Source of the DNA: an uncultured Acidimicrobiia bacterium
Lineage (GTDB): Bacteria > Actinomycetota > Acidimicrobiia > Spongiisociales > UBA11373
NCBI GenBank assembly: GCA_964633975.1
Contig: CAZWKX010000002.1
Location: 18,296-82,295, forward strand
Reading direction: 5' to 3'
DNA: 64,000 bases
The stretch's first letter is position 1. Each line of letters opens with the position of its first letter. Shown in pieces: positions 34,635 to 35,684 of the stretch. The position numbers were made by a program, and so were the translations under genes. The notes beneath the pieces were generated by a model. That model searched no databases. It worked only from the letters and a program-made list of their open reading frames with translations, and was not told the DNA's origin.

Positions 34635-35684
34635 TCAGACCAGCCTGATCCACCCGACTGCCTCGCCGACAAAACGCCCAATCACCGCGGCGGCGGGAGC
34701 CCCCTCAGCCGCAAGCCCACCGAGGAGGACGTCGAGCCGATCGGGAGCCACTGCTATCAGCAAGCCGCCCGACGTCTGAGCATCGGCCAGCAGAAGCCGC
34801 ATCGACGGGTCCGCCCCACCGAAGTCGGTGAAGGCTTCGGCATGGCGAAGATTGCGCATCGTGCCGCCCGGAGCGGCACCTGCAGCGGCAAGCTCCGCAG
34901 CGCCCGGCAGGATCGGCACTGCGCTGCAGTGAACCTCGGCGCCGATGCCGGGACCGCGGATCATCTCCTCCAGATGCCCCAGCAGACCGAACCCAGTGAC
35001 ATCCGTGGCCGCGCTTGCCCCGGCGAGGAGCATCGCTCGAGATGCTCCGGCGTTCAGGTGGGCCATGACCTCCACCGCGCGCCGGCGGTCGGCTGCGGAC
35101 ACGGAGCCGTTCTTGATACCGGTGGCCACCAGCCCGGTGCCTATCGGCTTGGTGAGCACAAGAACGTCGCCGGCCCGGCCGCCTCCATTGGTCACGATCT
35201 GGTCGGGATGCGCCAGCCCGGTCACCGCCATCCCGTATTTCGGCTCACGATCGTCGATGGAATGCCCACCTACCAGCAGACAGCCGGCCTCCGCCAACAC
35301 GGCGGCACCGCCGCGCATGGTGTCACCGAGGAGACTGAAGGGAAGCTCGTCACGAGGCCAAGCCACGAGCTGCAGCGCGGTGAGGGGCCGGGCGCCCATG
35401 GCGTAGAGGTCGGAAAGCGCGTTGGCCGCGACGATGCGGCCCCAGTCATATCCCTCGTCGACTATGGGGCTGAAGAAGTCGACACTTTGGACCAGCGCCA
35501 GATCATCCTCGAGCCGGAAGACCGCGGCATCGTCGGAGCTGTCGATGCCGACGAGAAGATCGGGATGCTCGAGCACGGTCAGGTTCTCCAGATAACGCAG
35601 GACCTGCGCCAGCTCGCCGGGAGCGAGCTTGCAGGCTCAGCCGGCACCGTGCGAATACCCGGTCAAACGGATCTCTTCGCTCAC
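34635..35684 (-). CDS. selD: Selenide, water dikinase (selenophosphate synthetase) with in-frame UGA (selenocysteine) at 35637..35639
   Basis: Minus-strand read-through gives VSEEIRLTGYSHGAG-U-ACKLAPGELAQVLRYLENLTVLEHPDLLVGID.., collinear with E. coli SelD [30 protein letters not shown]..NLLVG. The TGA aligns with catalytic Cys17. A GTG start at 35682..35684 follows GGAGGAGG. The ORF track only sees 34635..35576. Confidence 0.85.
35603..35635 (-). promoter_or_regulatory. SECIS-like stem-loop immediately 3' of the selD UGA
   Basis: mRNA: UGA-G-CCUGC-A-AGCUCGC-UCCCG-GCGAGCU-GGC-GCAGG. A 7-bp apical stem plus a 5-bp lower stem starts 1-4 nt after the UGA. Confidence 0.55.

Follow-up and report, generated by a model that had tools for sequence, protein, structure and literature searches.

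This analysis concerns a 64,000-nucleotide stretch of an uncultured Acidimicrobiia bacterium (contig CAZWKX010000002.1; the window) and the selD gene that it carries at 34635..35684 of the minus strand. We are confident that this gene is a genuine, full-length selD that encodes selenocysteine (Sec). An in-frame UGA stands where cysteine (Cys)-type enzymes have their catalytic residue, as an initial annotation of the window had proposed; both the alignment to SelD and the conservation of the TGA among related genes bear out that central claim. Directly downstream of the UGA, the coding sequence folds into two conserved hairpins, and RNA structure in this region is under selection in Sec-type, not in Cys-type, selD genes. 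On this basis we propose a model for the selenocysteine insertion sequence (SECIS) of these genes, in which the hairpin farther from the UGA may be the one recognized by SelB.

The selD reading frame opens with a GTG at 35684..35682 of the minus strand, preceded by the Shine-Dalgarno sequence GGGAGGAGG (35700..35692, minus), which can be read directly and leaves a 7-nt spacer to the start codon. Fifteen sense codons lead to the TGA at 35639..35637 (minus), codon 16 (Sec16) and the equivalent of Cys17 in E. coli SelD; beyond it the frame stays open until the stop codon at 34637..34635 (minus), yielding 349 codons including Sec16. The read-through translation is VSEEIRLTGYSHGAG*ACKLAPGELAQVL..., with 349 residues and the asterisk marking the in-frame TGA; it is also written VSEEIRLTGYSHGAG*ACKLAPGELAQVLRYLENL... 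(349 residues). The coordinates that the initial annotation gave for the GTG start, the upstream GGGAGGAGG, the TGA and the frame all hold on the minus strand. The same start and the same Shine-Dalgarno sequence are kept in three sister-species loci (L162, L166 and L167), and similarity between the window and the sister species begins exactly at the Shine-Dalgarno sequence.

Automated gene calling misses this N-terminus. In the mechanical list of open reading frames (ORFs), the gene begins at an internal GTG (35576..35574, minus) and yields a product of 313 amino acids (aa), 36 codons short, and the public NCBI protein P0001, 100% identical to that ORF, is the same 313-aa truncation; the loss of 36 N-terminal codons that had been anticipated is thus present in the databases. 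Truncated relatives of the ~320-aa class start at varying positions just downstream of the site where full-length relatives have SHGAGCACKL, the outcome expected if gene callers pick arbitrary internal starts. Truncation of selenoprotein genes by annotation pipelines is a general problem (PMC13188914). Upstream of selD, a 46-codon ORF (35821..35681, minus) ends in a TGA that overlaps the selD start as GTGA and has the look of translational coupling, but the sister species L166 encodes an unrelated peptide there, and we regard it as a chance ORF.

With U written as C, the full-length product scores 382.2 bits against the selD model TIGR00476 (cutoff 125) and 353.7 bits against NF002098 (cutoff 299), and it is collinear with residues 4-339 of E. 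coli SelD (3u0o; E 8e-79), which confirms the family assignment made initially. The U falls on E. coli Cys17, with SHGAG-U-ACK in the window aligned to SHGAGCGCK and with Cys19 and Lys20 conserved, and full-length Cys-type homologs read SHGAGCACKL at this position. The columns of D51, D52, D69, D92 and D228 are invariant in a 23-sequence alignment; we take these to be residues of the ATP/metal site with a catalytic role. For P0001, the identical truncated product, there are precomputed matches to the N- and C-terminal AIRS domains (PF00586 and PF02769). The E. coli enzyme thus shares the SHGAG-x-x-C-K loop and the conserved Asp and Lys positions, and differs in having a Cys codon (TGC/TGT) in place of the UGA and in lacking a SECIS.

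The window gene can also be set beside known bacterial Sec-SelDs. Its UGA aligns with the residue in the G-C-A-A-K motif of the Aquifex aeolicus structure 2yye, which presumably derives from a natural Sec enzyme. Together with Aquifex aeolicus SelD (2yye/2zod) and the Sec-SelDs described previously (PMC1794560), it belongs to TIGR00476, carries a hairpin signal within the coding sequence directly 3' of the UGA, suffers the same annotation artefact and has Cys-type homologs that keep remnant hairpins. We see no essential difference from these genes; the window selD comes from a GC-rich (67%) genome, probably of Acidimicrobiia or another group of Actinomycetota to judge from its nearest relatives, and adjoins mgtE and an alpha/beta hydrolase gene rather than selenium genes. 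FdhA and SelD have been called "the most widespread selenoproteins" (PMC1794560).

Is the UGA genuine? In a first set of 161 selD sequences, made up of the window's own gene and 160 loci from reference genomes and metagenomes, the codon at the Sec position is TGA in 43, TGC or TGT in 112 and unclassified in 6. TGA-type genes occur in Actinomycetota, Acidimicrobiia, Chloroflexota, Gemmatimonadota, Bacillota, Verrucomicrobiota, Desulfobacterota and others. The closest relatives (L162-L167; 67-84% identical) were retrieved in a later step, and TGA occupies the codon in all six. Two sequencing-run assemblies and one NCBI genome supplied three of them (L162, L166 and L167), whose sequences are identical to one another over the 135 nt compared. 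The gene order M20 peptidase, glnE, aminotransferase, mgtE, selD is common to the window, L163, L164, L166 and L167, and in L166 the match extends on both sides. Over the 12 codons preceding the UGA, the window and L162 show three synonymous codon differences but none that is non-synonymous, and synonymous changes likewise outnumber non-synonymous ones upstream of the UGA in six more distant relatives. TGA closes 23 of the 43 family-supported ORFs of the window and is therefore a normal stop codon in this organism, which rules out a general reassignment of TGA. A scan of the window for other genes with an in-frame TGA, based on GC content at third codon positions (GC3), returned five candidates, all of which proved to be antisense shadows or ordinary gene ends.

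These data bear on two alternatives to a Sec-encoding gene. The TGA could stem from faulty sequencing or assembly of a Cys-type selD, or from a mutation that recently inactivated such a gene, making it a miscalled TGC/TGT or a pseudogene; it is true that the exact window sequence was examined in one assembly and that the window holds no Sec machinery. Such an explanation is already close to refuted by the occurrence of the same TGA in sister-species assemblies from three sources and in dozens of other selD genes, by the purifying selection on the codons upstream of it, and by the Sec-type-specific selection on hairpins, described below, that is present in the window itself. Alternatively, the functional product could be the 313-aa protein starting at GTG 35576, the UGA merely ending a 15-codon upstream peptide. 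Gene callers do produce this model, and 11 nt ahead of that GTG there is a weak GGAG, but the truncation would drop the glycine-rich loop with the equivalents of Sec/Cys17 and Lys20, residues that are needed for activity according to mutagenesis of E. coli SelD. Moreover, the internal starts chosen by callers vary among close relatives, and SelD conservation extends through the codons from the UGA to 35576, which are collinear with full-length Cys-type proteins, so that we consider a functional 313-aa product very improbable.

Throughout the RNA analysis, nucleotides are numbered with the U of the UGA as 1. When a 66-nt stretch was compared with dinucleotide shuffles, the hairpin region appeared no more stable than chance (z -0.64). 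This control is uninformative in coding sequence of 67% GC, and we therefore used synonymous recodings that keep each peptide and the codon usage of each gene. Against this background the hairpin region of the window gene folds at -22.0 kcal/mol, compared with -15.1 +/- 3.2 kcal/mol for the recodings, of which 42 in 2000 are as stable. Over the 45 nt following the codon, Sec-type genes fold at -20.4 and Cys-type genes at -15.2 kcal/mol at comparable GC (p 4e-7), and the mean z in the recoding control is -1.68 for Sec-type and -0.51 for Cys-type genes (p 2e-7). The sister species matches the window throughout nt 1-39, without a single substitution. Remnants of the structure persist in Cys-type selD, with hairpin 1 (below) found in 14/33 genes against 5.1 expected and hairpin 2 in 3/5 against 0.4 expected, in keeping with the report that Sec-to-Cys conversions leave remnant SECIS-like structures (PMC1794560). 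No Rfam family was detected in a gathering-threshold scan of the whole window, and an E-value scan around the UGA gave noise only, with no bacterial SECIS family.

The individual elements were identified from all Sec-type sequences and a gap-free 54-column alignment. Hairpin 1 (nt 11-29; 35629..35611, minus) has the form AGCUCGCU-CCC-GGCGAGCU, an 8-bp stem with a 3-nt loop and a predicted energy of -11.5 kcal/mol, and spans the codons for K-L-A-P-G-E-L. At least seven of its eight pairs form in 16 of the 17 Sec-type genes that encode KLxxxEL, compared with 5.4 expected under synonymous recoding. In the register of the window, 61.5% of cells are paired across 43 sequences, with a shifted register in other lineages, and the loops are not conserved across Sec-type sequences.

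Hairpin 1 is the upper stem of the SECIS drawn in the initial annotation, in which it sits on a lower stem formed by CCUGC (nt 5-9; 35635..35631, minus) and GCAGG (nt 33-37; 35607..35603, minus). In this lower stem, 65.6% of cells are paired across the 43 sequences; pair 6-36 is broken in 27/43, and the complete CCUGC/GCAGG pairing is found in only 8/46 Sec-type sequences. Its 3' arm is used twice, nt 33-37 also providing 5' arm bases and the first loop base of hairpin 2, and the lower stem and hairpin 2 consequently compete.

Hairpin 2 (nt 31-45; 35609..35595, minus), GCGCAG-GUC-CUGCGU, consists of 6 bp closed by the loop G37-U38-C39 and spans the codons for A-Q-V-L-R. In the 43 sequences 80.6% of cells are paired, with compensatory change in five of the six pairs. 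All six pairs form in each of 22 Sec-type genes encoding AQ[VI]LR, where synonymous recoding would give 1.4. Within this peptide Ala is encoded by GCG and Arg by CGC or CGT in 19/19 tallied Sec-type sequences, and the peptide itself is present in 19/43 Sec-type but 5/112 Cys-type genes, which suggests that an RNA requirement has shaped the protein sequence of SelD at this site. Between the window and the sister species, hairpin 2 differs only by C40U and U45C, both synonymous and both preserving pairing, and the G-U of its loop is nearly invariant.

Which of the two hairpins binds SelB? A published model of the bacterial SECIS (PMC13188914) specifies an upper stem of 4-16 bp with a loop of 3-9 nt, a G at one or both of the first two positions of the loop (usually G[G or U]), a distance of 16-37 nt from the UGA to the apical loop, and a minimum free energy (MFE) of -7.5 kcal/mol or lower. 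Both hairpins have stems and loops of suitable size. The loop of hairpin 1, CCC or UCCCG, lacks the G that the G-U-C loop of hairpin 2 provides, and hairpin 1 lies 14-15 nt from the UGA, short of the range, whereas hairpin 2 lies at 33 nt. Hairpin 1 alone passes the energy limit and hairpin 2 alone, at -6.6 kcal/mol, just misses it; the two together reach -19.2 kcal/mol, and the outcome depends on whether one hairpin or both are scored. In 47 Sec-type sequences (the 43 plus four of the closest relatives) a canonical hairpin 2 is found in 34, and the loop of hairpin 1 satisfies the G rule in 10 of the 13 sequences without hairpin 2 as against 11 of the 34 with it (Fisher p 0.009, phylogeny not taken into account).

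A further reference is the SECIS of E. coli fdhF (UGA codon 140), which has G23 and U24 in its apical loop and a bulged U17, with U17 and G23 contacted by SelB (PMC8659212). As in the window gene, the hairpin closely follows the UGA within the coding sequence. The fdhF apex, UUGCA-GGUC-UGCA in the genome record, resembles hairpin 2 of the window, GCGCA-GGUCC-UGCG, in a shared GCAGGUC core that includes the loop G-U. The two differ in that the loop G-U is at nt 23-24 in fdhF and at nt 37-38 in the window, in that hairpin 2 has no counterpart of the U17 bulge, and in that the window has an additional conserved hairpin between the UGA and the apex. Hairpin 2 thus appears similar to the fdhF apex without being of the strict E. 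coli type (fdhF/fdnG). Taken together, these comparisons make hairpin 2 somewhat the likelier SelB-binding apex in the clade of the window, with hairpin 1 as a probable conserved accessory.

Several observations weigh against this assignment. The fold with the lower stem is predicted at -21.0 kcal/mol, compared with -19.9 kcal/mol for the tandem hairpins, and dominates the ensemble of the isolated window RNA. Hairpin 2 by itself is weaker than the energy limit of the model, is a perfect stem lacking a bulged U to match U17, and presents its loop 14 nt farther from the UGA than fdhF does. The Val codon also fixes G37 and U38, and their invariance is hence no independent evidence; the sequence counts, too, take no account of phylogeny. 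It is conceivable, though we think it less likely, that SelB instead binds hairpin 1, with or without the lower stem, and that hairpin 2 is an accessory or an unrelated conserved structure. The position of hairpin 1 matches that of the fdhF apical loop (about nt 19-25), it is the stronger hairpin, its pairing is enriched well beyond expectation in Sec-type genes, its loop is of the canonical G-containing kind in most lineages that lack hairpin 2, and the full structure as initially drawn is indeed the MFE fold of the isolated RNA. Its short spacing to the UGA, the rarity of a complete lower stem and the variability of its loops next to the nearly invariant G-U of hairpin 2 argue otherwise. The SECIS as originally drawn therefore survives in part: its upper hairpin is real and conserved, while its lower stem is not conserved, its CCC loop has no G and its spacing is too short.

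With hairpin 2 as the candidate SelB-binding apex, we propose the following model for decoding. Translation would start at GTG 35684, and SelB would deliver Sec-tRNA(Sec) so that the UGA at 35639..35637 is read as Sec, placing Sec16 at the position of the catalytic Cys17 of Cys-type enzymes, within the glycine-rich N-terminal loop. The recoding signal would consist of the two conserved hairpins in the coding sequence just downstream. With the UGA in the A site, the lower stem would lie inside the mRNA channel of the ribosome, judging from the positions of the ribosomal footprint and helicase site. The ribosome would accordingly melt the lower stem (nt 5-9/33-37) at decoding, freeing nt 33-37 and allowing hairpin 2 to form, and hairpin 1, then at the mRNA entrance, could act as a spacer or stabilizer. 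More generally, we give even chances to a bipartite, selD-specific SECIS that would be common to this clade and to roughly three quarters of the Sec-type selD genes sampled across several phyla. SelB would then read the distal hairpin 2, whose G-U at nt 37-38 lies at the upper end of the permitted spacing, hairpin 1 would form a folded spacer where the mRNA enters the ribosome, and the RNA requirement would have fixed both the A-Q-V-L-R peptide and its codons. We found no description of a bipartite selD SECIS with a distal hairpin in a literature search that was not exhaustive.

The machinery for Sec insertion is not encoded near the gene. There is no tRNA within the 64-kb window, and no selA, selB, selU, yqeB/C, senA/B or fdhA among its approximately 50 scanned ORFs; the initial annotation had likewise listed no selA, selB or selC, and tRNA, Rfam and ORF scans agree. 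The lack of selA, selB, tRNA-Sec and any further selenoprotein gene in the window counts against a Sec-encoding selD, and since the machinery is not in the window, the Sec-decoding trait is deduced from selD itself; selA, selB and selC would be expected elsewhere in the genome. In other lineages, a tRNA-Sec lies within the fetched flanks of 6/42 Sec-type selD loci. The immediate neighbours of selD are an alpha/beta hydrolase gene (33614..34681) and a divergent mgtE (36075..37451); glnE, gpsA and genes for RTX-repeat proteins are also among the neighbours, and selenium genes are not.

Some observations touch on sulfur and selenium metabolism without bearing on the recoding signal. In one relative (L164 11039..12800 and L165 2554..4315) with a Sec-type SelD that is 69% identical, DsrE-like, TusA-like and PALP (cysteine-synthase-fold) genes come after selD on the other strand, a set that looks like a sulfur or selenium relay; the matching position in the window is occupied by the alpha/beta hydrolase gene instead. 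The window also encodes a molybdenum hydroxylase pair of the xanthine/CO dehydrogenase family (7478..11339, plus strand), with a flavin adenine dinucleotide-binding subunit and a large molybdenum cofactor-binding subunit, and a MobA-like nucleotidyltransferase (44617..45210, minus). The initial annotation had raised selenium-dependent molybdenum hydroxylases, but the markers of that trait, yqeB and yqeC, are absent from the window. At 24822..26126 (minus), genes of the ThiF (E1-like) family and with a prokaryotic JAB domain are adjacent, an arrangement kept in L166; this is a sulfur-carrier or ubiquitin-like activation pair of the type used in thiocarboxylate-dependent biosynthesis.

The intergenic region between selD and mgtE contains a structured non-coding element (35938..36062, plus strand) directly upstream of mgtE, which is also present in L081, L084 and L163-L167. 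It comprises hairpin A (35954..35984) and hairpin B (35995..36028), one with a UGCCCCCCU loop and one with 15 bp and a tetraloop. The block shares 89% identity with the sister species, where the remaining spacer does not align, and its core hardly varies even among relatives with SelD identities of only 67-69%; an exact 21-mer of this core occurs in 7/167 fetched loci. The 201-nt leader folds at -107 kcal/mol, compared with -80 +/- 4 kcal/mol in shuffles (z -6.5), and at least two pairs have changed on both sides and are still paired. No Rfam family was assigned to the element, the best match, 6C RNA, scoring 18 bits where the cutoff is 47. A 6C-like small RNA is one possible identity, and an undescribed leader or riboswitch of mgtE is another.

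Among the remaining genes of the window, an ORF at 45317..46471 (minus) matches Pfam baeRF_family10, a bacterial archaeo-eukaryotic release-factor-like family (E 3.7e-17), and has a counterpart in the same place in L166; a release-factor-like protein in an organism that recodes UGA is a curiosity. Two adjacent genes at 30277..33297 (plus strand) encode proteins with RTX/hemolysin-type calcium-binding repeats, and the gene at the corresponding position in L166 combines Peptidase_M23 and HemolysinCabind domains. Three long ORFs with high GC3, at 26424..27698, 61379..62695 and 17385..18371 (all minus; 424, 438 and 328 aa), have no Pfam match at E 1e-6. The position of the first is occupied in L166 by a gene that also encodes 424 aa and lacks a Pfam match.

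What is the relevance of these findings? The window carries a mis-annotated selD of a well-known type, now correctly identified, and current understanding of the family is unchanged by it; the presence of two hairpins, the distal one with a G-U loop, may be the only less familiar element. The comparison of the two hairpins yields a testable prediction of the SelB-binding element, and the selD hairpins illustrate how a SECIS within a coding sequence constrains the protein sequence. The public protein is a 313-aa form that lacks the catalytic loop, and the same truncation affects many close relatives, which biases family alignments as well as the inference of traits in these uncultured Actinomycetota. 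Synthesis of a Sec-type SelD requires SelD's own product, and an autoregulatory role for this dependence has already been suggested in the literature. For the organism itself, a Sec-type selD implies a dependence on selenium and the reading of UGA as selenocysteine.

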